Assembly (NCBI RefSeq): GCF_037042905.1
Contig: NC_087250.1
Location: 27,902,001-27,966,000 of the forward strand
Length of the DNA: 64,000 nucleotides
Direction of reading: 5' to 3'
DNA from: Lytechinus pictus
Taxonomy: Eukaryota
The translations under genes were made by a program, and so were the position numbers. How positions within the stretch are numbered: the stretch's first letter is position 1; each line of letters begins with the position of its first letter. A model generated the notes under the pieces. It made no database searches, had not been told where the DNA came from, and saw only the letters and a program-made list of their open reading frames with translations. This document shows, piece by piece, positions 2,282 through 55,646 of the stretch.

Positions 2282-3936
2282 ATGGCATCAAGATTTCCAG
2301 AAGGAAACCAAGTTCAACTCCGACCAAGAAAAGGTCATGACATGAAATGGTCATGTGACAAGCATGGTGAGCCAATCAAATTTTACTGTAAGAAACACAA
2401 AATTCCTATATGTCATCCATGCGCTACCAAAGATCACAGTCAGAAACCATGTGAGCTAGACGACATCGAGGATGTTATCTTCGAAAGGAGGAGACAGCTA
2501 GATGAAAAACGGCCAAAAATACAGGAACTTCAGAAACAAATGGAAGCCCTCAACACGAAAATAAAGACTGTGTCAACGTCTGGAAGTACTCATTTTCGGA
2601 CAATTAACAACAACATTCAAGCTTCATATTACGACAAGATTGAATCTGTTGGAGAGAAGGAGAACAGGATGATTAGGGTTATTAACGAGGATGCAGATGA
2701 GGAAATAAGACTAGTAAATGAGAAGAGAGAAAAACGGATCAAAGATTGCAACATCGAGAGAGAAAATGAGCGGCAAATCATCAAAGACAAAGAAGCAAAA
2801 CTTCTATCACATGCAAAGAAAATCAGCGAAATCGTTTCTAAGAAGATCAAAGATCTTACTATAAAAAAAATCAGCATTTGATAAACACTATTGAGAATAT
2901 CAAATCAACCATCAAACGTATAAATCAACATGATGAAACATTGGTAAATGAAGCTCCGCAAGTACTTGCATCTATTGATGAAGATTTAAGTTTGAATGTT
3001 CATCAAGATGTTAGCGACTGCCTTGACCGAATACAGAGTGAAGTTGAGAGAATGAAGTTTGTAGAGAGGGAAGTAGGTGGAGAATACTATGGTAGAATTG
3101 ATGGGTATATCGGTAATTGGGAACTTGTCAAGTCAATTCACATTCCATCGGTTGTTAATTACCCGTATGTGCGAGGTTTGGTCAGTGATGGTGAGGTATG
3201 TGTTCAGGACGTACACAACAATGACATGTATGTTACAAACATCAACACTCAACACACAGAGAAAGTCATTGATGGAGGTGTGTTGATTACATCATGTGCG
3301 CCCATAGACAGTAACGTAATAGTATGTGGTAAGATGAGAGGTGGTTGCACGGGTGACAGGTTGGATGGATGCATCACTCTCTATGACAGACAATGGAGCG
3401 TGATTAGAGACATCAGCATACCAAGGAATGGATACGATAGTAGTGTGTATGTTGATGTTGACGGGGATGGGATGATCATCGCTGCTCAGTTAGATCAGTC
3501 TAATATCTACGTCATCAATCCTGCTGATGATAAGATAGTAAACACTATTACGATGCAGGGTAAGGTGGTGTGGGGTGAGATACAAGCCTTGTCATCAGGT
3601 GATATCGTTGTGAGGACAGATGATAATAAATACACTGTCATCTCACGATCAGGAGAACGGAAGGCTGTCATACACTGTGATGAGTGGGGCTGGTCAGAGT
3701 GTCGCGTTGACAAACTGACAGACACACTCTACATCGCGTACTGGGATAGAGCGCGTAATACCATCGCAGTTGATCAGGTGTCACGTGATGGTATCATCCA
3801 GGCAAGGAAGATCGTGGAATACGTGAAATCAGATCGCTCTGACTGGGTCAGCCATTGTCTTGTTACTCCTTCTGGTAACCTTGTAGGATGTGATGGGGAC
3901 AAACTTCATCTTTACAAGAAGACATTCATTTTGTAA
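2282..3936 (+). pseudogene. RING-less TRIM-like protein (B-box type 2, coiled coil, beta-propeller/NHL-like repeats), frameshifted in A8 run at 2863-2870 (pseudogene or assembly error)
   Basis: ORF 2282-2881 has CDKHGEPIKFYCKKHKIPICHPCATKDHSQKPC and a long charged helical region. ORF 2878-3936 is beta-rich (VYVDVDGDGMIIAAQ, IYVIN). Together they are colinear with ORF 46902-48542. Acceptor ttttccag ends 2254; ATG context catcATGG. Confidence 0.85.
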
Positions 3937-15874: not shown

Positions 15875-16166
15875 GTAAATATTTATTTACTTTACCGTAT
15901 AGTCGCACGTAAAAATATTTTCCAGTCAATGTTTTAAAACCAAAACCACACACAATAAACTTCATAAATAATAAAAAAAATCACAGAAATATATCCCCTG
16001 CTCAATGATTATCGCTTTAAAATTTTCTTCGATGGTGTGCGTATAATCTACTGCTTATACCATGTATACCTCTGCAGCAGACTTCCCCCGTTGTATTAAA
16101 GAAAAACGAAAAAAACAAACAAACAAAGAAATGAACAGAAGTAAAGCAGAAAATAATATGCCTAAG

Positions 16167-27400: not shown

Positions 27401-29099
27401 TTAAACAAATAATATATATACCATATTCAAATATGTTCGAAAATAACTTTGTATAACCAATTAAACTAATAGAAACAGAGAGAATAGAAGAATCGAGAAA
27501 AGTGGAAGAACTAAGGGTGAAAGGTGAACCAATGAGCAAGAGATCATGAATGAAGAAAAATGTTCTGAATATGAATGAGAAGACAATAGAAACATGGAAT
27601 GGCAATAGAATATGATGTATAAACTAAGGAATGAGATGAACAGGTGACAATGGCATATAAATGGGAAGTGAAGTATGGAAAGCAAAGTGTAAAATAAAAA
27701 GATTAATCATGACAAAATTCAATTACATTTAAATATAACGACCCATTCCCGTATAGATGAGTGAATAACAAAGAATATTTGTGTCTGTCCAATGAGCAGT
27801 CCGTCAGATTGTTGCTTCTTGGACTTGGTGGAATTCAAGACAAGATTAATTTATACATAGGACATAGATGCACGAAAACCCCAAAATTACTTCTTGCCAC
27901 TCCTGAAGCAGGTTTCTTTGCCTTGGGTCTTCATGGGTACATTGGACGGTTTATGCCTGCTGGACGGGATCCGAGCACGGCTTTATTGCCGTGCCGTGGG
28001 GCAGTGGAAACTAGAAAACAGCATGGCGTGCCGTATGCCGTGCCGGAATGCCGTGCACGGTCGCCGTGCCGGATGCGGTGTAAACGGGCCTTTACCCTGT
28101 CAGTGCATATACCTTAACTGTCTATACCCGTTTGAGTAGTTTATACAGAATCACAGAACATTCAGTTTCACTCGTCTTCAGAGAACAAGAAATTAAAAGT
28201 GACTAGTTGATTTTTTTCTTCGGTTTATTAATTTGCTAATGTATGGGAGTGGAGATGGACGAGTGTCAACCCAGGAGGGATGCAACTTATTTAGATATAT
28301 GTATCTTTTCACTCTTCTTTTGAGATCTATAGGAACACTTAAAGCATTACAGTGTAGGCCTACATCGTTTAGATGTCAGGCAACCGGGAAAGAAGGAGGG
28401 GGGGGGGCTCCGCGGAACACCATTGGTTGCCCCCGTATTAAGGGTCTAGGCCTGCATTCAATTCAGAAATTGAGCTAGAATTGCAACTATTTTACTCAAT
28501 ATATTGCTGAAATACAACTCTAACAACTCTTTGCTATTTAAATGTCTTTTTTGACAAATATGCAAAGTTGTATTGGTAGTATGCTAAAATCTAGGCTATA
28601 GGCAATCCCCTAATTAGCCTCTTGTCGAGGCCCTGGCGGTTGCTATGTTCCTGAGCGAAGCGAATTAGGCCTGGCGAGCGCAGCGAGCCGGGGCCTCTGG
28701 GAGCTGAATTATATCTTCATGAGGAACGTCTTCCTAATGAAAATACATGAGTCATGAATATTACCGGTTACCTAGTACAATGAAATGTCAAAGCTGTTTC
28801 GCCCGGGGTTCGGAATGATAGTTGTCCACTATTCCCAGGGACTATGCTGCAGGGGATTCATTTAATTGCTGGACACTAAAGGGGATATAATCAGCAAAAT
28901 GCTACAAGTAGTGGTACTATACTAGTACTAGCCGTAACAGACGCATTACCGCCCCGAAACTTCCCGGGAGATCGGCCTGGTCAGACTCGAGTCAAGGGGA
29001 ATCACTAACTGAACAACTCGACTCCAGCATTCCACGCGGAGATGGATAATTGACGCATAGTGGAATCCGGGGTGTACGGAAGCTTAGACGTGCCCCCAG

Positions 29100-29760
29100 A
29101 AGACAAGATGAGAAGACGAGAAAAAGAGCCAAGATGACAAGAAGACGAGGAAAGAAGACAAGAATACGAGATCCTCAATCTTGTCATGTCGATTTATTTA
29201 GGATGAGAAGGCGAGATGACAAGATCCATTATCTCGACATGTTGACTTATTTTGGATGAGAAGATGAGAAGACAAGATCATCAATCTCGTCAAGTCGACT
29301 TATTTAGGATGAGAAGGCGAGATGACAAGATCCATTATCTCGACATGTCGACTTATTTAGGATGAGAAGGCGAGATGACAAGATCCATTATCTCGACATG
29401 TCGACTTATTTAGGATGAGAAGGCGAGATGACAAGATTCATTATCTCGACATGTGGACTTATTTAGGATGAGAAGATGAGAAGACAAGATCATCAATCTC
29501 GTCAAGTCGACTTCGTCAGGACGAGAAGATAAGAAGACAAGATCCTCAATCTCGTCAAGTCGACTTATTTAGGATGAGAAGACAAGAAGACAAGATCCTC
29601 AATCTCGTCAAGTCGACATGTTTAGGACAAGAAGATAAGAAAACAAGATACAGAATCTCATCAAGTCGACTTATTTAGGATGTGAAGATGAGAAGTCAAG
29701 ATCCTCAATCTCGTCAAGTCAGCTTATTAAGGATGCGAAGATGAGAAGACAAGATCATCG
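29100..29760 (+). repeat. 53-bp subterminal tandem repeat, about 12 copies (left arm)
   Basis: Unit ggatgagaaggcgagatgacaagatccattatctcgacatgtcgacttattta at 29201, 29254 and onward. Confidence 0.9.
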
Positions 29761-31147
29761 CGCTGGAGTTATCGACCAATAACGCCCGACCAATAAGGAT
29801 TTTGAAGATAGCGGACTATAAATCATTATATTTTGCGTACAGTGTCTACAAAAGCACGAACTGAAATTGAAATTATATTAAAAGATATCAATTATCTATT
29901 GAAGTTAAAACTAAAAACTTATAAACATCTATTAACCATTAGTAATAATATAAGAATAATAAAACTCTCAGTGCAGATTGGTGGTTGCGGGAGCGAGCCA
30001 GATTAGGGGCGCGCATGGATGACAACGTAACAAAAAAGGTGATTTTCCTTTTTTTTAATCTTTATATGCCCACAATGCAAAAACAAGGATAAAAAACACA
30101 TAGAACATGGCCCATCAGTTGGAGTAAATAGTGTGTGTGTTTGGATGGGGGATGTGACAGACACAAATTTTGTTCTCTTCAGTGAATGAGGATTTTTTTT
30201 TTTGGGGGGGCTAGTTGTTGTTTTTTTGCAGGCGTAACCGTCAGTAAAAAATAATTATGGGTCACGGAGGGGGGGGGGTGGCAAATATGGCATAAAAGAC
30301 AAATTCTATTAATAAATGCAAGAGAGCAAAAAATTGAAACTACGGGAACATCAGCCTCATCACCCACTTTAGTTTGTTGCACAAGGGCGTAAATACGGGG
30401 GGATTAATGATCCGCCCATGCCGTTCTGTTTGTTTCTGTTTGTTTGGCATATAAATACCCCCCTCACTTTTTAAGACAGGAACGATATTTTTTAATCATA
30501 AACTGATTAATATAGGCTACTGCCGTTAATTCGTGGATTCGTCTGTTAATGCATTTGGAGTGCTTCGGTCGCTAGGCTCATTCGCTTAATCTATATAATA
30601 TATCCCAATGTTAAATTCATGCACTGGCAGATCAAGGGGGGGGGGCACATCCCTATTGTGGAATATTCTTTTAAAAAAGATATTGCCCTTTTCCATGATA
30701 AATTTCACGTGCTGCAACACCGGGTCTAACTCTTATTGTTGCAATTAGAAAACTAAATCTAAGACCCCCTTAATCATGAAAAATAATTAGCGGAAATCTA
30801 CGGCAAAATTCAATATTTTTCTTCAAAATAAAATATCGAGAGACATACCGCCATTTCGCCCAGTGAAGGTCCCATGCTGGAATCAGAGGTAAAAATGGCA
30901 GAGATAAAAATGGCAATTAATGGCCATTATTACCTCTGCCATTTTTACCTTTGCCATCATTACCTTTGCCCGTTTTTACCTCTGCCATTATTAGAAAAAG
31001 ATTAACATTGTTAACACAAGGCGTAACGATCAATAACATTTTATGAACATTTATATTCTTTATCACCAGTTTTATTATGATCATCGTTTTGGATTATCAT
31101 GATCATCATATTTATTTTTATTACCAGCAGAAGCTGACATCCCCTCC

Positions 31148-32643
31148 CAGTGGCGTACCGTGGGTCGCGACATTGGGGGGGGGGGCACCAGCAAAATTCT
31201 TGAGTCACTTAGTGAGCGCGCGAAGCGCGCTCAGTTGTCAGGTATACTGACCTAATAGAGACATTTTAAGGAAGCACTTGTTGTCATTGTAATCATGAAT
31301 AATATTCGCATCTCAGCAATCAAATAATGCGAGCGCGAAGCGCGAGCTGAAAATATTTGATATTCAGACCTAAAAAGGAACTTTATAATCGAATTTTTGT
31401 GATCATGATACGTACCTGTTTCGCTAAACAATGCGAGCGCGATGCGCGAGCCGAAAATTTTTGTATACATTGATCCCAAACAGGGAGATCTTAAGGACTA
31501 TATTTTAGGAATCTCTTAATAGTATACATATCTCACCAAAGTCATCTAATGCGAGTGCCAAGCGCTTGCTGATTTTGTTAGAATTACATTTAAACACATA
31601 TGAAACACTTGTAGTCATTGTAATCATGAATAACATAGGCATCTCACTAATCAAATATTGCGAGCGCGAAGCGCGAGCTAAAAAATCAGGAATTTCAAAC
31701 ACGAAGAGAGGCAATTTAAGGATTGTTTGTAGGAATTCGCAAAACCATACGTATTTCAATAACAAAATGATGCGAGAGCGAAGCACGAGCTGAAATTTGT
31801 GTATATATTGACACAAACAGGATTTTTTTTTTAAAGGAGTATACATATCTCACTATAGTCATGTAATGCGAGTGCCAAGCGCTTGCTGATTTTGTTAAAA
31901 TTACATCTGAACACATGAAGCACTTTTTGTAGTCAAAGTAATCATGATTATCATACGCGTCTCACTAATCAAATATTGCGAGCGCGAAGCGTGAACATTT
32001 AGATAATTCAGACCTGAAGCGGGGCAGTCTAAGGCTTGTTTGTAAGAATTCACTAAGACCATTCGTATTTCACTAACCAAATGATGCGAGCGCGAAGCGC
32101 TAGCTGAATTTTTTTGGATATTTAGATCAGAAAAAGGGACATTTCAAGGACTGATTTTAGGAATTCATGGAGAGCAGACATATCTCACCAATCCACTGAA
32201 GCGAACGTAATCACGGACAGGAAATGTTTTATATTAAGACCTTAACATGGGGCAATCACTTTAAGTAGTCATGAAAAAGAACCACATGTCACTATATAAA
32301 ACAATAATATATTTGGTGTATATTGACTTGAAAACAGGAGGTTTTCGTACAACAGGTTTATATATCTCTTTAAACAGACAATGCGAGCACCAGGAACAAT
32401 GAAGATATGGACCCTGAGCAAATTATGTTTCATAAAGTTATATGATAAAAATGTTTCCTATGTAAAATAACATAACATGACCATAATACAATATACAATT
32501 ATAATGAATAATAATTTCTTCTTTCCCACTACGTTCCTCTTCTTTTCTCCCTCTTTTTCTCCTTTTCCCCGTTTTTTGGGGTCAGCCGATGGGGGGGGGG
32601 GGGGGGGGGCACGTGCCCCCCATGCCCCCCTGTAGTTACGCCG
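31148..32643 (-). mobile_element. hAT-type MITE nested in the left arm (family of 59627-60762)
   Basis: cagtggcgta start; truncated tacgccg end; TSD tcccctcc / tcctctcc; internal gcgagcgcgaagcgcg repeats. Confidence 0.8.
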
Positions 32644-32924
32644 TCCTCTCCAATACAAATCCTATTTTATAGAGGTTACTCGCACGCGACCAACACACTT
32701 AATCCCCTGCATCTTTAAACCATTTGCTTGGGGTGCAATTGCTCAGATAAAATCGAAATTAAGCGTATGCTTGATCCGACCGCTTATTCTTAATGCAATA
32801 CATGTTTGGAAACAAAACAAACATGTCTCATCGTTCGTTATTTTATTATTTCATAATATCGTGTTATCTTGTAAGGACATCACCTTTCTTTTTATCAAAA
32901 TGAATTAATTTCATTTTCGGAAAT

Positions 32925-33120
32925 ACGCACCCTATTTAATTTTCGGATTAACGAACCTTATTTCGTTTTCAGACTAACACACCTTCGGATTAATGAACCT
33001 TATTTCGTTTTTCGACTAACGAACCAACGGAATAGCGAACCTCATTTCGATTTCGGATTAACGAACCTTAGGAATAACGAACCTACGGAATAACGGAGCT
33101 TCGGAATTACGAATGTATGC
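32925..33120. mobile_element. Short element with ttcggattaacgaacc repeats (family of 57809-58505); mirrored at ~33828-34010
   Basis: Ends ttcggaattacgaatgtatgc exactly as at 58484-58504. Confidence 0.6.
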
Positions 33121-34287
33121 AAAATCTATGACCCAATCCTGGAAATAGGCGAAAATCGCAAAATCAAGCCAAAATTAATATTTTTCTTTGATCGAAATAA
33201 AACATACCGAATGACATATATTTGGAATAGTGATTGGCGTTTTCTAAAAGCGCAGATACTGTCCTTTCACTTAGTATAGGTCCCATGCTGGAACACTCAA
33301 TCTAACTCTTATTGTTTACGATTGAATCTACGACACCTTCCAGGAAATAGGCGAAAATCGCAAAATCCCGCCAAAATTTATCTTTTTCTTTGATCGAAAT
33401 AAAACATATCGAATGACATATATTGGGAATAGTGATTGACGTTTTCTGAAAGCCCAGCATGGAACCTACGACAGGTGAAAGGGGAAAATCTGGGCTTTCA
33501 GGAAACGCCAATCACTATTCCCAATATATGTCATTCGATATGTTTTATTTCGATCAAAGAAAAAGATTAATTTTGGCGGGATTTTGCGATTTTCGCCTAT
33601 TTCCTGGAATGGGTCATAGAATCGTTTGTATACATTAAGAGTTAGTTCGAGTGTTCCAGCATGGGACCTACGGCAGGTGAAAGGGGAATATCTGGGCTTT
33701 TAGAAAACGCCAATCACTATTCCCAATATGTGTCATTCGATATGTTTTATTTCGATCAAAGAAAAATATTAATTTTGGCTTGATTTTGCGATTTTCGCCT
33801 ATTTCCAGGATTGGGTCGTAGATTTTGCATACATTCGTAATTCCGAAGCTCCGTTATTCCGAAGGTTCGTTAATCCGAAATTGAAATGAGGTTCGCAATT
33901 CCGTAGGTTCGTTAGTCGAAAAACGAAATAAGGTTCATTAATCCGAAGGTGTGTTAGTCTGAAAACGAAATAAGGTTCGTTAATCCGAAAATTAAATAGG
34001 GTGCGTATTTCCGAAAATGAAATTAATTCATTTTGATAAAAAGAAAGGTGTTGTCCTTACAAGATAACATGATATTATGAAATAATAAAATAACGAACGG
34101 TGAGACATGTTTGTTTTGTTTCCAAACATGTATTGCATTAAGAATAAGCGGTCGGATCAAGCATACGCTTAATTTCGATTTTATCTGAGCAATTGCACCC
34201 CAAGCAAATGGTTTAAAGATGCAGGGGATTAAGTGTGTTGGTCGCGTGTGAGTAACCTCTATAAAATAGGATTTGTATTAGAGGGGA

Positions 34288-35466
34288 CGGCGTAACTACA
34301 GGGGGGCATGGGGGGCACGTGTCCCCCCCCCCCCCCCCCCCATCGGCTGACCCAAAAAAAAAACGGGGAAAAGGAGAAAAAGAGGGAGAAAGGAAGAGGA
34401 ACGTAGTGGGAAAGAAGAAATTATTATTCATTATAATTGTATATTGTATTATGATCATGTTATGTTATTTTACATAGGAAACATTTTTATCATAACGTTA
34501 TGAAACATAATTTGCTCAGGGTCCATATCTTCATTGTTCCTGGTGCTCGCATTGTCTGTTTAAAGAGATATATAAACCTGTTGTACGAAAACCTCCTGTT
34601 TTCAAGTCAATATACACCAAATATATTATTGTTTTATGTAGTGACATATGGTTCTTTTTCATGACTACTTAAAGTGATTGCCCCATGTTAAGGTTTTAAT
34701 ATTAAACATTTCCTGTCCGTGATTACGTTCGCTTCAGTGGATTGGTGAGATATGTCTGCTCTCCATGAATTCCTAAAATCAGTCCTTGAAATGTCCCTTT
34801 TTCTGATCTAAATATCCAAAAAAAATCAGCTAGCGCTTCGCGCTCGCATCATTTGGTTAGTGAAATACGAATGGTCTTAGTGAATTCTTACAAACAAGCC
34901 TTAGACTGCCCCGCTTCAGGTCTGAATTATCTAAATTTTCACGCTTCGCGCTCGCAATATTTGATTAGTGAGATGCGTATGATAATCATGATTACATTGA
35001 CTACAAAAAGTGCTTCATGTGTTCAGATGTAATTCTAACAAAATCAGCAAGCGCTTGGCACTCGCATTAGATGACTTTGGTGCGATATGTATACTATTAA
35101 GAGATTCCTAAAAGATAGTCCTTAAGATCTCCCTGTTTGGGATCAATGTATACAAAAAATTTCGGCTCGCGCATCGCGCTCGCATTGTTTAGCGAAACAG
35201 GTACGTATCATGATCACAAAAAATCGATTATAAAGTCCCTTTTTAGGTCTGAATATCAAAAATTTTCAGCTCGCGCTTCGCGCTCGCATTATTTGATTGC
35301 TGAGATGCAAATATTATTCATGATTACAATGACAACAAGTGCTTCCTTAAAATGTCTCTATTAGGTCAGTATACCTGACAACTGAGCGAGCTTCGCGCGC
35401 TCACTAAGTGACTCAAGAATTTTGCTGGTCCCCCCCCCCCAATGTCGTGACCCACGGTACGTCACT
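34288..35466 (+). mobile_element. Mirror copy of the nested hAT-type MITE in the right arm, ~320 bp shorter
   Basis: Reverse complement of 31148-32643 lacking one internal repeat unit (~31570-31890). Confidence 0.8.
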
Positions 35467-36859
35467 GGGAGGGGATGTCATTTTTAATAAGAGCTTCTGC
35501 TGGTAATAAAAATAAATATGATGATCATGATAATCCAAAACGATGATCATAATAAAACTGGTGATAAAGAATATAAATGTTCATAAAATGTTATTGATCG
35601 TTACGCCTTGTGTTAACAATGTTAATTTTTTTCTAATGCAGAGGTAAAAACGGGCAAAGGTAAAGATGGCAAAGGTAAAAATGGCAGAGGTAATAATGGC
35701 CATTAATTGCCATTTTTACCTCTGATTCCAGCATGGGACCTTCACTGGGCGAAATGGCGGTATGTCTCTCGATATTTTATTTTAAAGAAAAATATTGAAT
35801 TTTGCCGTAGATTTCCGCTAATTAATTTTCATGATTAAGGGGGTCTTAGATTTAGTTTTCTAATTGCAACAATAAGAGTTAGACCCGGTGTTGCAGCACG
35901 TGAAATTTATCAGGGAAAAGGGCAATATCTATTTTTAAAAGAATATTCCAACTATAGGGATGTGCCCCCCTTGATCTGCCAGTGCATGAGCTTAACATTG
36001 GGATTTATCATCGCGAAATCCAATAAGAATATATTATATAGATTAAGCGAATGAGCCTAGCGACCGAAGCACCAAAATGCATTAACATACGAATCCACGA
36101 ATTAACGGCAGTGGCCTATATTAATCAGTTTATGATTAAAAAATATCGTTCCTGTCTTAAAAAGTGAGGGGGGTATTTATATGCCAAACAAACAGAAACA
36201 AACAGAACGGCATGGGCGGATCATGAATCCCCCGTATTTACGCCCTTGTGCAACGAACTAAAGTGGGTGATGAGGCTGATGTTCCCGTAGTTTCAATTTT
36301 TTATTAATAGAATTTGTCTTTTATGCCATATTTGCCACCCCCCCCCCCCCTCCATGACCCATAATTATTTTTGACTAACGGTTACGCCTGCAAAAAAACA
36401 ACAACTAGCCCCCCCAAAAAAAAAATCCTCATTCACCGAAGAGAACAAAATTTGTGTCTGTCACATCCCCCATCCAAACACACACACTATTTACTCCAAC
36501 TGATGGGCCATGTTCTAGGTGTTTTTTATCCTTGTTTTTGCATTGTGGGCATATAAAGATTTAAAAAAAAGGAAAATCACATTTTTTGTTACGTTGTCAT
36601 CCATGCGCGCCCCTAATCTGGCTCGCTCCCGCAACCACCAATCTGCACTGAGAGTTTTATTATTCTTATATTATTACTAATGGTTAATAGATGTTTATAA
36701 GTTTTTTAGTTTTAACTTCAATAGATAATTGATATCTTTTAATATAATTTCAATTTCAGTTCGTGCTTTTGTAGACACTGTACGCAAAATATAATGATTT
36801 ATAGTCCGCTATCTTCAAAATCCTTATTGGTCGGGCGTTATTGGTCGATAACTCCAGCG

Positions 36860-37572
36860 CGATGATCTTGTCTTCTCATCTTCGCATCCTTAATAAGTTG
36901 ACTTGACGAGATTGAGGATCTTGTCTTCTCATCTTCACATCCTAAATAAGTCGACTTGATGAGATTCTGTATCTTGTTTTCTTATCTTCTTGTCCTAAAC
37001 ATGTCGACTTGACGAGATTGAGGATCTTGTCTTCTTGTCTTCTCATCCTAAATAAGTCGACTTGACGAGATTGAGGATCTTGTCTTCTCATCTTCTCGTC
37101 CTAAATAAGTCCACATGTCGAGATAATGGATCTTGTCATCTCGCCTTCTCATCCTAAATAAGTCGACATGTCGAGATAATGGATCTTGTCATCTCGCCTT
37201 CTCATCCTAAATAAGTCCACATGTCGAGATAATGAATCTTGTCATCTCGCCTTCTCATCCTAAATAAGTCGACATGTCGAGATAATGGATCTTGTCATCT
37301 CGCCTTCTCATCCTAAATAAGTCGACATGTCGAGATAATGGATCTTGTCATCTCGCCTTCTCATCCTAAATAAGTCGACTTGACGAGATTGATGATCTTG
37401 TCTTCTCATCTTCTCATCCAAAATAAGTCAACATGTCGAGATAATGGATCTTGTCATCTCGCCTTCTCATCCTAAATAAATCGACATGACAAGATTGAGG
37501 ATCTCGTATTCTTGTCTTCTTTCCTCGTCTTCTTGTCATCTTGGCTCTTTTTCTCGTCTTCTCATCTTGTCT
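36860..37572 (-). repeat. 53-bp subterminal tandem repeat (right arm)
   Basis: Reverse complement of the 29100-29760 array with a different number and order of variant units. Confidence 0.9.
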
Positions 37573-38712
37573 TCTGGGGGCACGTCTAAGCTTCCGTAGG
37601 GGTGGAATCGCATGATATTTCGTCGTCTCTCTTCGCCAAGAATCCACGGGTCGCCATTCAAGATGAGCTCATGAATATTCAACAAGACGTCATAGAAGCC
37701 CGCGCTCTCATTGGATGATTTTCAACGACCAGTTTTTGGTCGGAATATTGGTACAAACAATAAAAAACAAACAAAACAAAGTCGATGAAGTTCGGCTCAG
37801 ATGTCAAGAGGCCCTGTCTCGCTGGCTCTGCTTCGCTATATCCCTCGCTTCTCTCGGGAAGCAGCCGACGGGGGCTCGACAAGAGGCTATCCCCACTTGG
37901 CTTGGGCGCGTTTTTACAAACTGGTCTAGACATGCTAGACTTCATGACATCATAATTCAGGGGCTGATCCAGCTTTCGCCAATAAGGAGCCCGAATTATT
38001 TTCAACTATGTGTTTACGATCAGCCACACAGTATCCATTTTTGTTTATTTCTTTGAAGGGGTAGTCACTAATGCTTATTCATTTTGAAAACAACATACAT
38101 AATAATTCCATTTAAGCCCTATCTAAATAGTGCAAGCGCGAAGCAAGGGCTATTTTGTGGAAATTTCATGCTTTTCGTCCTGAAAATTTAACATTGTTGA
38201 CTGACAATTTTTCTGATCATGGACAAGATGCGTAAGTAACTAAATGATTCCTGCGAGCGCAAAACCTAGACAATCGTGTGTCTTCCTACATACATAATGC
38301 GAGCGCGAAGCACGAACAGAAAATTTTTATAGTCTGATCCGAAACTTTATAAGCACTTTTTGAAGAACAAAAACAAGCTACGTATCTCAAAAAACATGCT
38401 TGCGCGTGTTTTAGCTTTAGACCTATAGAATCTCGGAATTCTAAAAACATTTCTTATCCTGAATATGAATGCGAACGCGAAGAGCAGGCTGAAAATGTAT
38501 GATATTTCGGGGACATCCCGATAGACCGCGGGTCCGATAGTCCGCGGGTCCGATAGTCCGCGGGTCCGTTAGTCCGCGGGTACGATAGACCGCGGGTCCG
38601 ATAGTCCGCAGTGTGTGTAAAATTATGATCAGATATATCAAATGTCATCGAGAGGTCCAAAGGTTAAAGTTTTCCGTGGGGGAACTGCCTCACCTTCCCC
38701 CCACCCCCAGCT

Positions 38713-43987: not shown

Positions 43988-44615
43988 GGTTCTATAACAA
44001 CCCAATTAGGGCAATCATCCCCTGACAACTACTTGAAGGAAAATACCACCCACGGAAATTTACCCTCCAGACAATTACCCCGGATTATTACCCTTAGTAC
44101 GGAGCCTTTGAAATACCATCGAGGTGACGACATGGCGTGATACTTTATCTTGCCATGTATAATTAATAAGCTTATTATTTCGACATGGCGATATATTCTA
44201 TCTTGTCAAGTCGATATATCGACATGGCGAGATATGAAGTGTACAAGTCCCGGCGAGAATCCCGATATATTGCCATGTTGACATATAACTTGTTACAAGT
44301 CGACTTGGCAAGATAAAATATCTCACCATGTTGACGTATAACTTTTTATATGTGGACTTGGCAGGATAACATATCTTGCCATGCGGAAATAATAAGCTTA
44401 TTTAGTCGACATGGCAAGATAAAGTATCTCGCCATGTCGTCAAGTCAATGGCATTTGAAAGGCTCCGTACTAGGGGTAATTGGCGTCTAGAGGATAAATT
44501 TTCGGGGGGGGGGGGGGTAACAGTCCCCGATGTTAGAAATATGGGGATAATATTTTCCTTGAAGTCCATGTAGTTGTCAGGAGGCGATTGTCCTTTGGGT
44601 CATCGTTATAGAACC
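43988..44615. mobile_element. Small foldback MITE hosting the 44098-44469 element
   Basis: ggttctataac...gttatagaacc ends; cctgacaactac / gtagttgtcagg inverted. Confidence 0.65.
44098..44469. mobile_element. TAC..GTA-ended MITE resembling the ends of the giant palindrome
   Basis: tacggagccttt...aaaggctccgta; internal gtcgac and atggcgagata motifs like the 53-bp units; no clean TSD. Confidence 0.7.
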
Positions 44616-45497
44616 CCATGGACTCGTATCATTTACCTTTTGACCCGTCTTGATGACATTGGATCTCACTATATCCTGATCATAATTTTACACACACCGC
44701 GGACTATCGGACCCGCGGACAATCGGACCCGCGGTCTATCGGACCCGCGGTCTATCGGACCCGCGGACTATCGGACCCGCGGTCTATCGGGCTGTAACCG
44801 ATATTTCGATCTGTCAGAGAACAAAAGTCGATTTCTTGATATGGTTTTTAATTGATTTCTTAATATAGTTTACTTCTGGCAAATGGAGATATGTGTGTGT
44901 GGGGGGTCCACAGAACCGTAGTGCCCCCTCTTATATCGTTTCGACCTTAGGCCGGCAATCAACTCACTACAGATACCAGGATTTCATTTATTTGTTTACT
45001 CAGTACTCTGCTGAAGTAAAATCAAATAATATAATGTCTTTTGTGGCCAAGCATGCAAAAATCTGATTCGGCCCTATGGCTGGTTTTTGTGCAGTTACAA
45101 GACGCATAAAAGCTCGAAACTTGATAGCCTGGAGCGAAGAGACCGATCGCTCGTGGGGCCCTCTTGTATTTTAGGGAGAGATTGAGGATTTAGGGCAAAT
45201 TATTGGGCCTTTATTTAATTTTCAGCAGCATTCACCTCACCTGAGTTGATCGAGTTCAGCACAGTGCGGGTAAATTTCTTGCTGAAAAAACAAAGAGGGC
45301 ATCAGGTTGTTCGTGGACCCACATCCCCGTTTGCCAACACCAAAAATGTACTTTGTAATGTTTGTATAATGCTACAACAATCTAAGCCATGTACGGCCAT
45401 GCTTAACTATAGTTGGTCTGGATTGGTTTTGACTGAAGCAATATGTTTTGGTTTTGATTTGTTTCTTTCTACAAGTAACCCAGATTAACAGGAAGAC

Positions 45498-45774
45498 ATG
45501 GATGATTTTGATGAACTTTTGATCAAAGTTGCCAAACGAGTCCAACAAAACTCGGAAATCGAAAGATTAGGAAAAAAACTTGAATTCCCTCCAGAAGATG
45601 TTCAACGTTACATAGCAACTAATCACAAAACACATATCATTACTTGGGATGGAACTCTTCAGATGCTCCGGGATTGGCGTAAAGGTCAAGAAATTGCTAA
45701 AGAGAGAGATAATTTGAAGACTGCTCTGAAGAAAGCAGATCAAACTCGTCTTGCTGAGGAACTCTTTCCTTCAA
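45498..45774 (+). CDS. Coding exon 1: DEATH-fold domain of a DEATH-B-box-coiled-coil-propeller protein
   Basis: MDDFDELLIKVAKRV...IERLGKKLEF...DVQRY...GTLQMLRDWR...LKTALKKADQTRLAEELF fits a six-helix death-domain pattern; gacATGG start; donor A|GTAAGA after 45774 (phase 1). Confidence 0.8.
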
Positions 45775-46893
45775 GTAAGATAAAGAAAGAAATATTGAAA
45801 CTGTTAAAAATCTCATTTATTAGGAAGAAGCATCAAGGTTTTTTTCTTCTGACAATGCATTACATGTTTCATACTATTACACCATGCTTATTATTTTGTT
45901 GTTTTTGATACTTTAGTAATTGTCTCTCTTTACTACTCAATAACGATAATGATGAAAATAATAATAACAGTCAAAGTACTAATAATAAAAAAATAATGAT
46001 AATAATATAAATGATAATATCGAAAATAATAATAAAAGTACTGATGATAATAATAATAATAACAATACACAAAATAGTCATAACAATAATAATAATAAAA
46101 GTAATACAACTAAAAACCATATTTTTTAGATAGTGAAATACATTACGAATGCAGTTGTTTTTTTTAAAGCAGTTTCCCCACAATACTTTTTGAAGGGTGC
46201 TCAGGAGGAAAATAATCATATTTATATCAAAAGAATAAAATTACCGAGCATACGGTTGGAAATTACATTCGAGTCTGAGATCAAATAACGACATTATTGA
46301 ATTTTGAAATTTAGCAATATTTTATTTGGGGGGGAACAGATTAATGCACGTGTAAATGAAGATTATCTTTTAAATTCAATAAGTTTTGTTAACCCAATTA
46401 CTTTTAATTTTGGTGGATAATGGAGAAAAATATTATGGCTTATGAAAAAAAATAATAAGTGGGATATACGATTCCTGATTATGCACATGATTCATGAAGA
46501 CATGCTGATATCACTGTTTCACTGAAATCATGTAGATTTTAAAAATATCATAACTTTGAGGATTTTTTTAAATGTAATTCTGCATATGTTTTATGCCTGG
46601 GACACCCTTCAGGAAAAAAAGCACCAATACTCCCAGGTAACGAGGACCATTTTTTAAACACATGTCGTTTAATAGTCCTTGTCAATTTGGTTCCCATTAA
46701 AAAGAAAATGTGAATATATCTTTCCTGAATCCGAGGGAATTTACATTGACAGGAATCCTGCAGTGAATGTTAATCATATGAAATTATTTAGAGTAAACAT
46801 TTTGCAATCAAACACCATTAGTAATAGCGTATAGCGATAAAATAGAGGAAAGTCGTCCATCATTTCGTTGTCATTATCTCATACACGATGCAG

Positions 46894-48542
46894 GTTGCTC
46901 TTTGCCGGCTTCCCAACCTGAAAGAGATGACGAACTCGAGGTCAAAGGTGACAGCGTGAATTTATCATGTGATCAGGACAATGAGCCAATAGAATTCTTT
47001 TGCAATACACATCACATTCCCATTTGTCGTCAATGCAATGCCAAAGATCACCTGAAAGCGTGTCAGATTGAAAGCATCAATGATGTCATCCGTGAGAGAA
47101 GACACAAAGTTGATGAGAAAAGGCAGAAAATACAAGAACTTAAGAATCAATGGGAAACACTCGACGCGAAAAAGTTCGCCATAACGTCGGAAAATACAAA
47201 GTTTCAGACAATTTATGACAATATTAAAGCATCATATCGCAACAATATCAAATGTGTTGATGAAAAGGAGAACAGGATGATTAGGGTTATTAACGAGGAG
47301 GCAGATGAGGAAATAAGACTAGTAAATGAGATGAGAGAAAAACGGATTAAGGATTGCAACACCGACAGAGAAAATGAGCGAAAAATCATCAAAGACAAAG
47401 AAGCAGAACTTTTATCAGATGTAAATAAAATCAGCGAAGTCGTTTCTAGGAAGATCAAAGACATTACAAATAAGATTAATCAAGCAATGAACGCTATTAA
47501 GATTATCGAATCGACCATCGCGTGTATAAACCAAGATGATAAAAAATTGGTGAATGAATCTCCTAAAGTACTTGCATCTATTGATGAAAATTTAAGTTTG
47601 AATGTTCATCAAGATGTTAGCGACTGTCTTGACCGAATACAGAATGAAGTTGAGAGAATGAAGTTTGTAGAGGGGGAAGTAGGTGGAGAATACTATGGTA
47701 GAATTGAAGGGTATATCGGTAAATGGGAATTTGTCAAGACAATCCACATTCCATCGGTTGTTAATAACCCGTGTGTGCGTGGTTTAGTAAGTGATGATGA
47801 GATATGTGTTCAGGGCGCAGATAACAAAGACATGTATATTACAAACATCAACACTCTACACACAGAGAAAGTCATTGATGGAGGTGTGTGGATTACATCA
47901 TGTGCGCCCATAGACAGTAACGTAATAGTATGTGGTAAGATGAGATTGGATTGCATTGGTGACATGCTTGGATGCATCACTCTCTATGACAGACAATGGA
48001 AGGTGATTAGAGACATCGGCATACCAAGGAATAGATACGATACTGATAGTGTGTATGTTGATGTTGACAGGGATGGGATGATCCTCGCTGCTCAGTACTA
48101 TCAGTCTAATATCTACGTCATCAATCCTGCTGATGATAAGATAGTAAACACTATTACGATGCAGGGTAAGAAGGTGATGGATGAGATACAAGCCTTGTCA
48201 TCAGGTGATATCGTTGTGAAGACAGATATTAATGAATTCACTGTTATCTCACGATCAGGAGAAGAGAAGGCTGTCATACACAGTGATGAGTGTTACAGGT
48301 CAGAGTGTCGCGTTGACAAACTGACAGACACACTCTACATCACGTACTGGGATGGAGCGCGTAAGACCTACGCAGTTGATCAGGTGTCACGTGATGGTAT
48401 TATCCAGGCAAGGAAGATCGTGAAATACGTGAAGTCAGGTCGCTCTCTGTCCACGCGCCCTTGTCATGTTTCTCCTTCTGGTAACCTCGTAAGATGTGAT
48501 GGAAACAAACTTCATCTTTACAAGAAGACATTCATCATGTAA
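46894..48542 (+). CDS. Coding exon 2: B-box-like zinc finger, coiled coil and beta-propeller-like domain (RING-less TRIM-like)
   Basis: Acceptor tgcag| at 46893; a phase-1 join puts it in frame with ORF 46902-48542; open to TAA; colinear with 2282-3936. Confidence 0.88.
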
Positions 48543-48601
48543 ATCATCAAGTATGATTCAAAAAAATATATATTGATGAGATACCTATTTTCAGCTTCAA
48601 T

Positions 48602-49155
48602 CCCGGAGGGGCCACTTACATTGACGAGTGGATACCATGCGCGACCCAAAAAACACGTAAAAAGGATGTCTTTTTCACGATACGGCACGTTACGTACGTA
48701 ACGTGATAAGGGTGTCAAAACCCCCAAAATAATGAAAAAAGGGTATCTATTTCGCTAGAAAAATAACGTGTTTAGGGTCAAATTTGCAAGTATGATAAAA
48801 CAAAATTAAAATGTTTTATAAAGGATGTCTTTTTTGCCCCAACACTTCGTGTTTAGGGTCCGATTTGCCCGAGGTGTAGAAGGTGGGGTCGTACTATACC
48901 AAAAGCCGACGACCGAAGGACCCGTAAAAATAAAATATTCCTGTACTTGTTTAGGGTAACGTTCATTTCAGGGAATATTTGCCAAGAGTATAGTTTTGTT
49001 TCCAATACTTGTGAAGGGTAGGGTTTCACACGCCAATACTTGTTAAGGGGTGCATTTTCAGAATATGGAAATTACGTGTTTAGGGTGCTTTTCGAGACCC
49101 CATGGTCGCGCATGGTATCCACTCGTGAATGGAAGTGCCCCCCCCCCCCCCCGGG
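48602..49155. mobile_element. CCCGG..CCGGG-ended MITE just 3' of gene copy 2, absent from copy 1
   Basis: cccggaggggccactt..acgagtggataccatgcgcgacc inverted to ggtcgcgcatggtatccactcgt..aagtgccccc..ccggg; flanked by CTTCAAT direct repeat. Confidence 0.8.
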
Positions 49156-49513
49156 CTTCAATGTCATTTTAATTGACGTCCCCCAACATGATTACATTCA
49201 TAATGCGCGTGTTGACGGTGTGAATGTTGTATCAATATACAGGTGCAATGTATTGCGGTGTTGCAAGAAACTTGCCATCGATTGCAGGTCAGTTTTAGGT
49301 TCCAAAACTGAAAATCGTGCATTTCATTGAAAATTTGCAACTGATTGATGGTCAGCTTATGTTATAAACAAATATACATGTAAATGATTTGGTTTAGTTA
49401 AAATTGATCTATCAATTGCTAAATTTGCAATTGATCGCAAATATTTTATTGTGTCTTACAAAATGCAGTGAATAATATTTAGCCGTCTAGATTAATATTT
49501 TTATTCAAATGTA

Positions 49514-50230
49514 TCCCAGCCATGGCGTTATTTCCTTCAGCAAGAAACTGATCCACAATGTGCTGCACTCAACCCAGGTGAGGTAAATGGGTACCGGTAG
49601 GAACTAATTCCTTAAAAAAGCTGTGTGCGCTATGAACGCCTAGCTTAGTCGGGTAATATAGGAGCGCCTTGAGCACCTACCAAGGTGGATATAATGATAA
49701 TAATAATAATGGCTATTTATCTGCGCTATACACAAAAGTATCACAACGCTTACAATCAGAAATAAAGTATAAATGTTAAGTAACAAAAAAATAAAAAAAG
49801 AGTGTAGAATTATATACATTAAATTGCATCAACTATCGGTGTTCTCAACTGTGCCAGATAAGGCCTGGTGGCCTCTTGCTTGCTGCTTCGTTCCCCAACA
49901 ATTTAAGGGACAAGCCCGGTCAGCACATCATTCACAGAAGCTCTATAGTATAGCACTTGAGGCCACCAGGCCCCAGATGGGTTAGCCAAGTCAAACCAAA
50001 TAGTGATAGCAAAAATCATCAAAACAAATATACATTAAATAAATGAAAATATAAAACTAGATATTTGGAAAAAGATATGACTTGAGTTGTCGTTTGAAAG
50101 ATGATATGGTCGGTGTTGTTCGGATAGAAGAGGGGAGTGTATTCCAAAGTCTAGATCCAGCTACACTAAAACGTTTATCTGATATGTGCGCAATATAAAT
50201 ACCCTATATTATTATTATTATTATTATTAT
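49514..50230 (+). mobile_element. 5'-truncated tRNA-derived SINE interrupted by an L2 fragment
   Basis: Body matches SINE 56114 (gccatggc..ttccttca.caagaaa..gcactc.acccaggtgag); resumes after 50185 and ends in (tta)n; absent from copy 1. Confidence 0.7.
49693..50180 (-). mobile_element. L2-type LINE 3' fragment with GATAT TSD
   Basis: Minus-strand translation DKRFSVAGSRLWNTLPSSIRTTPTISSFKRQLKSYLF; (att)n tail; GATAT at 49688-49692 and 50181-50185. Confidence 0.8.
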
Positions 50231-50572
50231 AGTGTACTCGTAATAATAAAATGGTTAACCAATTGCCTACTTTAATCCCTGTAGACGGTCTATGGGAATG
50301 GCTGAACCCAGCATATGACGAGTTAATTACCAACTTGTGTTAGCTGAACCCGATCATTTACCAAACGCTATTTCGTTCAATGTTATTCGTTGTTATGCTA
50401 ACAGTGATCATTTTATACCGGGATTAAATTTGCTTTTAACTTCATTGGGTCTTTAAATCCAATTTATCCATCAGGTTGATTTTATTTTTCATTCTGTTGC
50501 AAAAAAGGTGAAGTAATATAAGATTGTATTAAAAGGAGAGGGGAAAAGTGATGTGAAGTACAAGTAAGTGTA

Positions 50573-50912
50573 GGAACCGTGGCATAGTGGTTCTGACTAT
50601 CACCTTGTAAACAGAGGGTCGTGTGATCGAATCCCAACGAGGTCTGGCGTCATAAAGGCGTTAATCCACACTTTGCCACTCTCGACCCAGGTGACCCGGT
50701 AGGATGTGAAAGTCATTGCAGCTTGTCCACTACTGTGTGCGCCTCACCGGCAACTGACTGGAATACTCCCCAGGGAGTGGATGATGTGCTCACATTGTGT
50801 GCGGGAATGACTGATTGAATGCGATGACCGGGGTAGTATTATATCTGTAAATTGCTCAGACACACCGTTCTAATGAATTAAGCGTTATATAAAAGCGGAT
50901 TATCATCATTAT
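50573..50912 (+). mobile_element. tRNA-derived SINE (paralog of 4735-5090)
   Basis: tggcatagtgg A box, gatcgaatccc B-box-like motif; same position within the duplicated flank. Confidence 0.75.
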
Positions 50913-53900
50913 TAGTGGTATCAAATCAAATATTCAGTTATGAATCATATTTCAGCTGGCGCTGAGCATTCAGATTATTAGGGAATCGAGGATGCATGAA
51001 TTTATGAGCGGGAATGACACGTCGTTCAAATGTATTAAGAGCTATATAAAAGCGGACTATTATTATGATCATTATAGTTTTTTAGTGTACGTAATTCCCT
51101 CTCATGAATGTTAACAGAAAATAAGAGAAAAACTCATTTTGTGTAATGGAATCCTTGCTCATTCAACATACATATCACAATGGATATGATGAAGATAGAC
51201 AGAAATGAATATGTTTCCCCCATAATTCTCTTTACACCAATTGAATATTCTCATTTTGTAGAAACCGGTGACGCCAATCTCAAAATGATTCAGCACGCTC
51301 CATATTTATCATATTCATGAAAGTATTACATCATATCGCTTATTTCAATCAGTTAATTTACTTTCAATAGTCTGTACACCTTTTAATATTTTCAACAAAG
51401 ATTAATTAAGATATATTTTTCCATGTGTTTAACCTATTATTTCATATTACACTTACTACCTGGCTATGGAATCTCAAGTAGGAAGTCTTTGGATTGTTGA
51501 AAGATTTTTTTAGTTGTTTTTTGTTAACGACTGTAATGATGTGTTGACCCCCGCTACGTTCAGTAACGTTTATCGACATCGTTAATTGATGTCAAATTAC
51601 TTTCATCATAAAGATCCCATGGACATATAAACATCTGGTAGTCGAACGTGCCATGCTGTAAATAAATAAGAATAGGGATATACATGTATTTGTTGTGTAA
51701 CAGACAGAGTTAGATAATATGACAAATAACTGTACATATCATAGCTTATGTTGGTGGTTTTATATTAAGGAGGCTGTATTATATTAAATTCATTTATATT
51801 CTTTATTTCATTTTCATTTAATACTGCGTTAAGTTTGTAAACAGTTTGTACTGTATAAAGTATATGTTGCTCCAATGCATTGTTTATAAATCGGTATTGT
51901 CTAAGGTGTGTTGTGTTAATGTAGAAATGTGTCATTTATACAAAAGAATCCGGCCACCGAATTTATACAATAATCAACTCTGTACAGATTGAGTTTAGCT
52001 ATATAGGGTTTATGTTTTACTTAAAGTATCAATTCAATCGCTCGTTATTGTCTATAGCATTACTATATGATAACTAACCCTAAAGAGAGCGCGGGAGAAA
52101 GTTCCATATAAATTTATTTCGATTATTTGTCAGATCTTACAACTTTTCCTTGATTTTGATTGGCTGAGAAGCGCTGTTATCATGAAACGCTAGACAATCC
52201 TAGCTTTGTTTGATTTGCTCAATATGTGATAATTTATAATGATGTCACGATCTATCATTTCTAAGGGTATACTGCAAGATGAGTAGAAAGTATACGTTTT
52301 GTTTTTAATATAATATATTTTCATTATGCTTTGGTGTGGAGTATTTAAGAACACTGTTGAATAGAAAAAAAACATGTTTTTATTATAGACTTTAATCAAG
52401 GCGAAATAATTCTAACCTACTAGAGGGCAGAAAATAGTCATGTGAAAATCGAAAAGAAATATCTTTACCATTGTCAATCCTGTATTAGTTTTATACACAT
52501 TACTGATCTAAACATCAATTGTCGAATGATCTGGAAAACAATTTGTTCATATTTTAAATTGATCGGAATCTTTTTAGGGTGTATTTTGAGGTCATTATTA
52601 TGGTGATGGGGAGGGTGTTTTTAATGCATAATTATTCATGTCATTTTATAATCAAGTAATTGAAAGTAAAATGAAAAAAATGTCAAACAAAATACCGACT
52701 TTACGTGCAGTTCATATTTCTAATTTACAAATGAGTACATTAGACGTGTAGGAATGGTTGAAATAAAATATATTTATATATATATAACGTTGTTGACAGA
52801 CGAAGGGTGATATAAAGAGGGAGAGGGTGGGAAAAAGTGGTGTAGAGTGAGAGAAAAATGAGAGATGATAAGGAGAGAGAGAAAAAAAATGAAAATAAAA
52901 GAATAAAAAGATGGGAAGGAGAAGGATAGAAAAGATGAGAGAGAGAGAGAGAGAGAAAGAGATAGATAGAAAGAGAGGAAAAGAAAGATAGAAGAAGGAG
53001 AGAAAATGTAGAGACAGTAAGAATAGAGACTGGGAAAGAGAGAGAGTGTGTGAGGAGTGAGAGAAATGGAGAGACAATGAGAATAAAGATGGAATAAGAG
53101 AGGGACAAGGAGGAGAAGAAGAACTACCGAGAGAGAAGGAATGGTAAAGAGAGATGGGTGTGAATTTGTAATTGAGTTTGTATTTGTATTTTCCATTTTC
53201 ATGAAACAAAGTAACATTACATTACGAAAATAAATATATCACAAACCGTGTCAATCATAGTAATTCATAACGAAAGTGAAGAAAGGGTGAATTTGAACTA
53301 CGTAGATAATACTGACTTCGTCGAAATTAAGTAAACGAAAACATAACGGAGGGAATTGCCAAGAAAGATTGAATTTAAGAGATAGAAAAAGGAAGGGAGA
53401 GAAAAAAAAGAACGAGAGAGAGAGAGAGAGAGATAGGAAGAGAACGATCCCAACGCTTCTTACATTTTGTATAACCAGGAGAAAAAAGTACGATTACATA
53501 ATATTAAATTATATTAGGCTACTTTACTTCAATGTATTCAAAGAACTACACCACTGTCATGACTGTCATATTGAATTTATGTTCAATGCTTAAAAAAAAT
53601 AATATATCAAAACATAATATCACTATACAACAAATACATTTTGATATACAGAATACAGAAGATTATGACAATGTCAAGAAATGAAAGTGAAATATGTAAA
53701 ATAACCTGCATAAAAAGCTTAGCTTGTAACGTCTGAAGGTTCCTAAATATGGTATGGATGCTGTCTCTGTTTTCATGGTACTTCCTCAAGGGGGAAGGGG
53801 GCTTCAAATATATCTAACAAAAGATAATATATGCATAGACATACTGAGCAACTCATCTGGCGTATTAAATCACCCATTGAATGTGATTTTCTTCTTCATT

Positions 53901-54221: not shown

Positions 54222-55646
54222 TTCAATTCAAATTCAATTCATATTTATTTATTTCACTTCCATCAAACAAAAACAAATTGTATGCCATATATAAACATAA
54301 ATATTTGTATCCGTTGCAAACAAAATTAATGATACATATGTTGTGAAAAAAAACACTTAGACAATTTGGGTAACACGTTGTAGGTTTTTAATATGTATAC
54401 TATTTTCAATAGAAATTAAATTAAGGTGGAAATAGAGGGACCCACTAAAAAGCAATGTTTGTACAATGTGGGCCCCTCAAAAAATAGATAACACAATAAA
54501 TAACAATATAAGTATAAATACAGATAATCAAATGAGAAAAAAAATGAGAGGAAAATACTCACAAAATAAATACAAAGTTATCAAAAATATATAGTTTGAT
54601 AAAGGACAATACAACCCGTCCTAAAAATATCCACCCCCCAGAAAAAGAGAAGAAAAAAGAAGAGAATGTCCTGAGAAGATGGATGGGTGCTGCTGTACGT
54701 AGATAGAACACATGCCGTCGTGGACTCAAGGAAACTGGATTCAATGATGTATATAAAAGAAGAAAAAATATATAAAATAACCTGGAAAGAATATAATGCA
54801 CGAAAAATGTGATTGATGCCGTAAAAAAATAACCGGTGGGAAGGCGGATAAGCGGACAAGAGAGGAGAAAATAGAGGAGAGGATAGACACAATAATGAGC
54901 ACATCTGAGAAGGACTTGTGTCAGATTTTTTTTTTAAATAAAAAAAGGATAATAATCATTTTATGTTTTAATTGTAGTCTTTAAAGTAATAATGACGACT
55001 TGACAGAGATGATGAATTAAACTTAATTTGGGAGTATATTATAAGGTTTTAATAGAGATAAATTGAATTTAGTCTTAAAAGTCTTAAAAGAATTCAAAGA
55101 TTTTGCATTTGTTATATGATTATGAAGTGAGTTCCATAACTTCGGTCCATCATATATAAATGTGTTCTGAGCCCGCAAAGTTCTTAAAAGTGGTAAATGA
55201 AATTTACCCAATCGCCTTGTTGGATAGTTGTGAATGGATTGATTTTTTGGAAACATTGAATTAAATACATTTGGGAGGTTGTTGTTGTTATAGTTATACA
55301 TAAACTGACCGAGATTAAACAAATATAAGTCCTTAATTTTCAATATTTTATGTTAAAAAAATAATGGGTCAGTATGAGACAAATATGCCGTGTGACATAT
55401 AATACGTAGAGACTTCTTTTGTAATAGGAGTAATTTGTCTAAGAGTGTTTGTTGTGTATTACCCCATGCTAAAATTACATAATTTAAATAAAGCAATATA
55501 AGGGATGAATATAATGTAAGCAGGGACGATAATGGTAAACAAAATTTAAGCTTGTTAATTATACCAATGTTGCGTGAAATAGTTTTACATATGTTATCTA
55601 TGTGAAATTTCCATGAGAACTTATTATCGACTGTTATTCCAAGAAA
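54222..55646 (-). mobile_element. 5'-truncated L2/CR1-group LINE fragment
   Basis: Minus-strand translation FLGITVDNKFSWKFHIDNICKTISRNIGII...AWGNT...LQKKSLRII, then ORF 55023-55343 (HNYPTR, GPKLWNSL); (ttgaa)n tail. Confidence 0.88.

Follow-up and report, generated by a model that had tools for sequence, protein, structure and literature searches.

A stretch of 64,000 nucleotides from Lytechinus pictus (the window) carries, at 45498..48542 of its forward strand, a predicted gene for a TRIM-like NHL protein that lacks a RING and bears a death-domain (DEATH) head in a pyrin-like layout; it is not a canonical TRIM, pyrin or NLR. Our preferred reading is that this is a real spliced gene whose product would serve as a cytosolic DEATH-B-box2-coiled coil-NHL sensor, pyrin-like by convergence. 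We regard the chances for and against this reading as about equal. A role as an intracellular immune sensor is plausible.

Gene structure

The gene comprises 277 nt of coding sequence (45498-45774) and 1649 nt (46894-48542), joined in phase 1 into a frame of 641 aa with one stop, which is terminal; all gene features given here and below lie on the forward strand. The coding part of the DEATH exon (45498..45774) runs for 92 codons plus 1 nt from the ATG at 45498 to a phase-1 donor (A/gtaag at 45774/45775), and the acceptor reads gatgcag/G at 46893/46894. The phase-1 donor, the acceptor at 46893 and the in-frame product of 641 aa had all been put forward in a sequence-only reading of this DNA, and both coordinates and arithmetic were correct when checked against the sequence, the splice itself being predicted. 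The predicted GT-AG intron (45775..46893; 1119 nt) holds no TIR exon or TIR remnant. Upstream of the DEATH exon lies an acceptor region with a short 5' UTR (45455..45497; in-frame TAA at 45486-45488), where the CAG acceptor of paralogs L033-L035 is CAA in the window gene and further AGs occur at 45475, 45483 and 45491. A pair of contigs whose source runs are RNA only by guess align with the DEATH exon at ~86-90% and diverge from the window at 45473-45475, the pattern that an upstream splice should produce; they may represent paralogues or another species.

The long terminal exon (46894..48542) encodes a linker, the B-box2, the coiled coil and the NHL propeller. Its first in-frame Met is at 47277, beyond the B-box, so that an upstream exon is required, and its codons 17-110 are constrained (dN 0.33 vs dS 1.15 against the nearest paralog). 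Frame match alone is weak evidence for the join, since of the 54 AGs that lie in the interval from donor to B-box, 6 would allow a full in-frame join. The acceptor at 46893 is singled out by homology, as it and the linker have homologous counterparts in the DEATH- or TIR-headed paralogs L023, L024, L027 and L034. A deletion over the start region of the head-less genes is common to the window gene, L023, L024 and L027, with PASQPERDD aligning to MASKFPxERDD. In the RefSeq models of two sister genes this homologous acceptor is joined to DEATH, directly in one (P0098) and via a TIR-like exon in the other (P0074).

Contigs (85% likeness) from four of ten candidate runs, none of the ten on record as RNA or containing more than 0.07 of the query words, showed no 45774/46894 joint and left 46940-47171 uncovered, and are uninformative either way; one contig with a short joint from 46937 to 47567, whose shorter side spans 27 letters, may stem from a headed paralog and is too weak to serve as evidence. 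Database searches returned no near-identical protein for the window gene (best named matches 72-74%), and the exact exon was absent from the protein collection searched. Judged from the sequence, the structure, with the DEATH exon spliced to the long exon by the predicted join, is quite probably real. It is very improbable that the exons are not joined in this way, with the DEATH exon splicing elsewhere or reading through (136 aa) and the long exon taking another upstream exon. The missing junction evidence, a weak pyrimidine tract and the five other in-frame AGs speak for such an arrangement; against it, homologous donors and acceptors are paired in paralogs, the window has no TIR exon, and no upstream coding exon closer than the DEATH exon was found.

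The DEATH exon

By profile comparison the first exon is a death domain. It matches Pfam Death (PF00531) at E=4e-4 and 21 bits, slightly below the cut-off of 22.6, while a profile built from the exon and 30 relatives finds the FAS death domain at E=5.5e-6, followed by the ankyrin and FADD death domains, in agreement with the death-fold call made earlier. No PYD match was obtained for this exon by Pfam or profile search. The same ATG position and A/gtaag donor recur in all five intact copies of the cluster (L031-L035), which form one clade (98/95) adjoining tandem-DEATH proteins and terminal DEATH exons; one long-branch ZU5 domain that fell inside this clade in a first tree was left out of the second.

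The DEATH domain had previously been linked to those of sea urchin NLRs. Its nearest kin are instead tandem-DEATH and C-terminal DEATH domains, the clade sitting on tandem-DEATH and ZU5 proteins. Constraining the copies to group with the DEATH domains of six sampled NLRs, or with only the closest of these, was marginally rejected (AU p=0.049 and 0.037) in tests on an unrooted tree and a small sample that were made after a tree had been seen. An NLR origin as the default reading was rejected; the exon is not nested among the six NLR domains sampled. The closest DEATH exon outside the cluster (L038) is internal and phase 1-1, with an ATG at the same place, and on this sequence likeness an exon of its type is a plausible candidate source. 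A further DEATH-profile search gave 10 matches, adding eight ZU5-DEATH proteins. A large array of terminal DEATH exons (L045-L060; G000:C8 ~23-42 Mb, C37, C62) groups with ZU5-DEATH proteins, and these are candidate partners of the headed genes. Compared with its closest copy, the DEATH exon carries 11 nonsynonymous and 0 synonymous changes (P ~0.07 if neutral); it thus gives no hint of purifying selection after the duplication, and either relaxed or diversifying selection could account for the pattern.

B-box and coiled coil

A B-box type 2 at 46968..47063 scores 25.2 bits against zf-B_box (Pfam cut-off 24.1). Seven of the eight zinc-ligand columns are kept; the eighth, His to Asp at exon residue 29, is His in 115/115 relatives, which were selected for having a B-box. 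The TRIM-type coiled coil or helical scaffold that follows (47076..47657) is a predicted antiparallel homodimer, and a profile of the B-box/coiled-coil family matches TRIM28, TRIM5 and TRIM3. Pfam found no RING in either exon, and neither Pfam nor the structure model contained a NACHT/STAND NTPase in the gene.

The model of the long exon (116 aligned sequences; pLDDT 85.8, pTM 0.73) contains a B-box, long helices and a propeller. When residues 20-272 were modelled in two copies, the dimer score was 0.60 versus 0.01 for the best control, with contact agreement of at least 94% between runs and pLDDT of at least 83, the predicted dimer being antiparallel about residue 141. The mark for this score was reached by 21 of 30 solved pairs and none of 23 single chains (17/29 and 0/30 among eukaryotes). 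The coiled coil is thus predicted to pair with itself as an antiparallel dimer, where the score may reflect likeness to solved TRIM dimers. Together with the TRIM28 and TRIM5 profile matches, the score supports, as a prediction, the oligomerizing role proposed in the sequence-only reading, whose calls of B-box, coiled coil and propeller likewise hold up: the zf-B_box match lies above its cut-off, the coiled coil is of TRIM type and the propeller of NHL type.

NHL propeller

Modelling and structural alignment place a six-bladed NHL beta-propeller with hypervariable top-face loops at 47715..48533. The best structural match is the Mei-P26 NHL domain (Z 23.6, rmsd 3.2, 257 aligned), followed by Brat (23.2), Thin (23.1) and TRIM2/3 (22.3), and a profile search finds the TRIM2/3 NHL domain at E~1e-6. 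WD40 propellers ranked first by Foldseek E-value, and six-bladed NHL domains came out on top after structural re-alignment.

The top face, on which NHL domains bind their ligand, was defined after PMC4015489 as the b-c plus d-a loops. Selection was assessed on 23 paralogs: of 30 loci, 26 have an open frame of at least 520 aa, and three distant ones among these were left out. Pairwise pN/pS was 1.42 (bootstrap 1.10-1.86) for the top-face loops, 0.50 (0.29-0.85) for the bottom loops, 0.80 for the propeller core and 1.07 (0.87-1.32) for the whole propeller, in a comparison whose pairs are non-independent, in which gene conversion is frequent and for which the variable sites were seen before the faces were defined. 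Columns with at least six residue types numbered 23/97 on the top face versus 0/73 on the bottom. The top face of the window gene itself is as divergent as those of its paralogs (pN/pS 1.51; 1.07-2.22), and its propeller has a single private change at otherwise invariant columns, which indicates no decay of the domain. From these sequence comparisons, the ligand face of the propeller is diversifying; the contrast between top and opposite face supports the sensor-like reading of the propeller suggested earlier.

Since the closest folds are RNA-binding NHL domains, and Brat binds RNA with this same top face (PMC4015489), the protein might be a Brat- or Mei-P26-like regulator of endogenous mRNAs that carries a DEATH adaptor and is not immune in function. 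We consider this quite improbable. RNA-binding TRIM-NHLs have a positive top surface (PMC4015489), whereas the balance of K+R minus D+E on the top face (a residue count, not electrostatics) spans roughly -15 to +9 across 26 paralogs and equals 0 for the window gene; the hypervariable face and the tandem arrays also argue against it.

Family context and mosaic origin

The long exon has at least 80 genome matches, ~20 of those listed falling within ~1 Mb upstream, and the window gene stands at the end of a ~1-Mb tandem cluster whose paralogs are mostly head-less. Most paralogs have their own ATG after a 5'-UTR acceptor, head-less being the common state of the family. Of the 107 DEATH matches listed, eight are followed on the same strand, after 0.7-16 kb, by a long-exon match. 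Five of these eight are intact (shared ATG and phase-1 donor), one is partial and two are broken. A TIR-like exon (Pfam TIR_2 only E=0.005) stands between DEATH and long exon in three of the eight, and the one such cassette examined in the sister genes is symmetric, phase 1-1. The TIR-like family has eight matches, including G000:C6:27207478, 27034521 and 27859697, C6:23836883, C6:23816724, C1 and C12. One protein (P0165) combines a TIR-like domain with a C-terminal DEATH, this TIR type also pairing with DEATH outside propeller genes. The exon shuffling envisaged in the earlier account is borne out by the phase-1 DEATH exon, the symmetric TIR-like cassette of the sisters and the loss of the long exon's own ATG.

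RefSeq models two of the sister genes, both as 'uncharacterized': XP_063957348.1 (P0098), with DEATH-CC-NHL, and XP_063956665.1 (P0074, locus L032), with DEATH-TIR-CC-NHL. Matches for P0098 in the ESM Atlas were all <0.9 and serve as leads only. The B-box ligands are lost in the aligned headed relatives (P0074, P0064, P0067, P0098 and P0114). Among 258 fetched proteins, DEATH and B-box were combined in none (the searches being weak for long proteins), and DEATH and propeller in two, both from the window's cluster; by sequence, the window gene is the only DEATH-B-box-CC-NHL form found. Several other family members were noted. Two near-identical DEATH-CC-NHL genes, L035/L027 (G000:C6:27143188-27145617) and L034 (C6:26151344-26153799), lie ~1 Mb apart on opposite strands, the former copy with an in-frame TAA. 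An L. variegatus model (P0005) has a C-terminal ZU5 after the propeller and may be a fused gene model.

The window also holds a head-less paralog at 2282..3936 (own ATG, B-box, coiled coil, NHL). The in-frame TAA described earlier between its acceptor and its ATG is present. Near 2860-2870 it also has 2 inserted nt, which divide it into two ORFs, and this copy, frameshifted as assembled, is a pseudogene or an assembly error. The proposal that it might be a decoy or partner of the headed gene fares poorly, as it is frameshifted as assembled and one of dozens of head-less copies; the reading of it as an intact dedicated decoy was rejected.

The window gene is a mosaic. A segment at 44048..46191 shares 94% identity with the 5' part of the DEATH-TIR-CC-NHL gene (L032, P0074). 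Codons 1-110 of the long exon have no close copy (best 52% among 50 genome matches). An approximate recombination or conversion breakpoint lies at 47250..47275, where DNA identity to neighbors is 60-80% before and 87-100% just after, the head-less neighbors matching at 87-100% from ~47250-47275 onward. Past it, the coiled coil is 72-79% identical to the two head-less neighbors compared and 37-40% (residues 111-180) to other headed genes. The window's two genes and their 3' flanks form a segmental duplication (2330-6548 vs 46944-52140, 85-93% identical). In trees, residues 120-260 group with head-less cluster genes (92/84) while residues 1-112 sit on a long branch, whose grouping with the headed genes is neither rejected nor supported (AU p=0.22). 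These sequence data are most simply read as recombination of a headed with a head-less gene. The window gene probably preserves an intermediate stage of a headed sub-lineage, with head gained, ATG lost and B-box not yet eroded, and its 3' part would later have been replaced by recombination with a head-less neighbor.

A mosaic of three parts with no matching protein record could also be a recent by-product of birth-and-death evolution, an open recombinant copy with little or no expression that is turning into a pseudogene. The mutated upstream acceptor, the B-box His to Asp change, the 11N/0S record of the DEATH exon and the many broken neighbors, including the 2282 paralog, fit this account. 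We nonetheless think it rather unlikely, given the open frame of 641 aa, the constrained B-box segment without a close copy among the 50 genome matches and the nearly unblemished invariant columns of the propeller.

The likeness of the coiled coil past the breakpoint to head-less neighbors, and the position of the DEATH clade on tandem-DEATH and ZU5 proteins, would also suit a functional regulator or decoy, in which the DEATH head dampens or rewires a ZU5-DEATH/tandem-DEATH network or is lent to head-less paralogs via mixed coiled-coil dimers. This we hold to be unlikely, as the gene's own top face is as divergent as its paralogs', which fits ligand binding.

Other elements were seen in the window. 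A large inverted duplication at 29075-37598 (arms ~91-92% identical), possibly a foldback-type element, contains 53-bp tandem arrays at 29153-29756 and 36864-37520, and ~625-bp units, direct and inverted and 79-91% identical, occupy 21863-25699. A palindromic element at 44087-44480, upstream of the DEATH exon and also present in L032, is followed by a 16-bp tandem array (44697-44790). A broken retroelement fragment lies at 14879-15980 on the reverse strand (RVT_1 E=5.6e-14 in 15555-15980); frames resembling it at 55023-55646 gave no Pfam match.

Expression of relatives

In Strongylocentrotus purpuratus, 8 of the 10 family genes checked, all head-less, occur in a coelomocyte cluster-marker table that is permissive, falling in phagocyte or colourless spherule clusters (PMC13043383). 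Bulk counts from the same source, which are for coelomocytes only, were 0-11 reads for four of the five family genes found. These data lend weak support to immune-cell expression of the head-less relatives.

Comparison with known systems

Canonical TRIM (RBCC) proteins have an N-terminal RING finger, a B-box and a coiled coil. The window gene shares with them the B-box2 and the predicted antiparallel coiled coil, but lacks the RING and has a death domain as its first exon. With pyrin (TRIM20) it shares the absence of a RING, a death-fold domain ahead of B-box and coiled coil, and a C-terminal binding domain. TRIM20 forms an antiparallel dimer with the B-boxes far apart (PMC4455283), and the dimer modelled for the window gene is likewise antiparallel. 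It differs in having DEATH rather than PYD, an NHL propeller rather than B30.2 (PRY/SPRY), and a linker of ~25 aa instead of 60 or 280 aa; moreover, it belongs to a multigene array, and nothing points to common descent of the fusion. The layout has a vertebrate precedent in pyrin and, on our preferred reading, was built separately, by convergence.

RING-less TRIM-like members such as Brat are recognized (PMC3503706). Like the TRIM-NHL and subfamily C TRIM-like proteins (Brat, Mei-P26, Thin, TRIM2/3/71, NHL-2), the window gene has a B-box2, a coiled coil and a six-bladed NHL domain. Its propeller, however, is only 11-15% identical to theirs, its model has no filamin domain, and it carries a DEATH head; its family has a hypervariable top face of variable charge and dozens of tandem copies. 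The sister genes XP_063957348.1 and XP_063956665.1 share its DEATH clade (98/95), donor and homologous acceptor, but their B-box has lost Cys/His ligands, whereas the window gene keeps its B-box along with a coiled coil of the head-less type.

Sea urchin DEATH-NACHT-LRR NLRs combine an N-terminal DEATH with a variable C-terminal sensor and lineage-specific expansion (PMC2858798). An N-terminal DEATH, a variable, putative sensor at the C-terminus and such expansion are common to both, but the window gene has neither NACHT nor LRR and would oligomerize through its predicted coiled coil. Tandem expansion and positive selection on the C-terminal binding domain are shared with fish finTRIMs and TRIM5 (PMC2657112), which differ in having RING and B30.2 and no death fold. 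We found no description of this architecture in the open-access literature searched, including passages of PMC3137616, PMC3503706 and PMC2858798. The main text of PMC2575513 and PMC13228809 contains no B-box, NHL or TRIM terms, and their supplementary domain-combination tables could bear on novelty.

Proposed function and significance

If the product is the cytosolic sensor that we favor, the coiled coil would form an antiparallel dimer, with the propellers probably near its middle and a B-box and DEATH at each end, as in TRIM20 and TRIM5. The variable top face would bind a foreign or altered-self ligand. Because TRIM20-like dimer geometry (PMC4455283) would hold the two DEATH domains apart, one at either end, they could meet only if dimers cluster; a repetitive ligand, aided by B-box contacts, could bring about such clustering. 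The assembled DEATH domains would then recruit DEATH-bearing adaptors, most likely tandem-DEATH or ZU5-DEATH proteins, the closest kin of the gene's own DEATH. The B-box ligand change, the mutated upstream CAG acceptor and the 11N/0S record weigh against such a sensor.

A broader proposal, tentative and well short of an even chance, is that sea urchins possess an undescribed, NTPase-free class of cytosolic immune receptors, namely TRIM-like dimers with a hypervariable NHL face that are coupled to signalling through swappable phase-1 DEATH and TIR exons. The window gene would be the full pyrin-like form and, via its recombined coiled coil, a possible shared signalling subunit for combinatorial head-less sensors.

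The cluster displays the steps side by side: head-less genes, DEATH with B-box (the window gene), DEATH with an eroded B-box, and DEATH-TIR. The variable top-face residues are direct targets for tests of ligand and specificity. If the gene is functional, the pyrin design of death fold, B-box, coiled coil and binding domain would have arisen twice, here in an invertebrate and on an NHL propeller, and sea urchins would have a further diversified family of intracellular receptors besides the NLRs.
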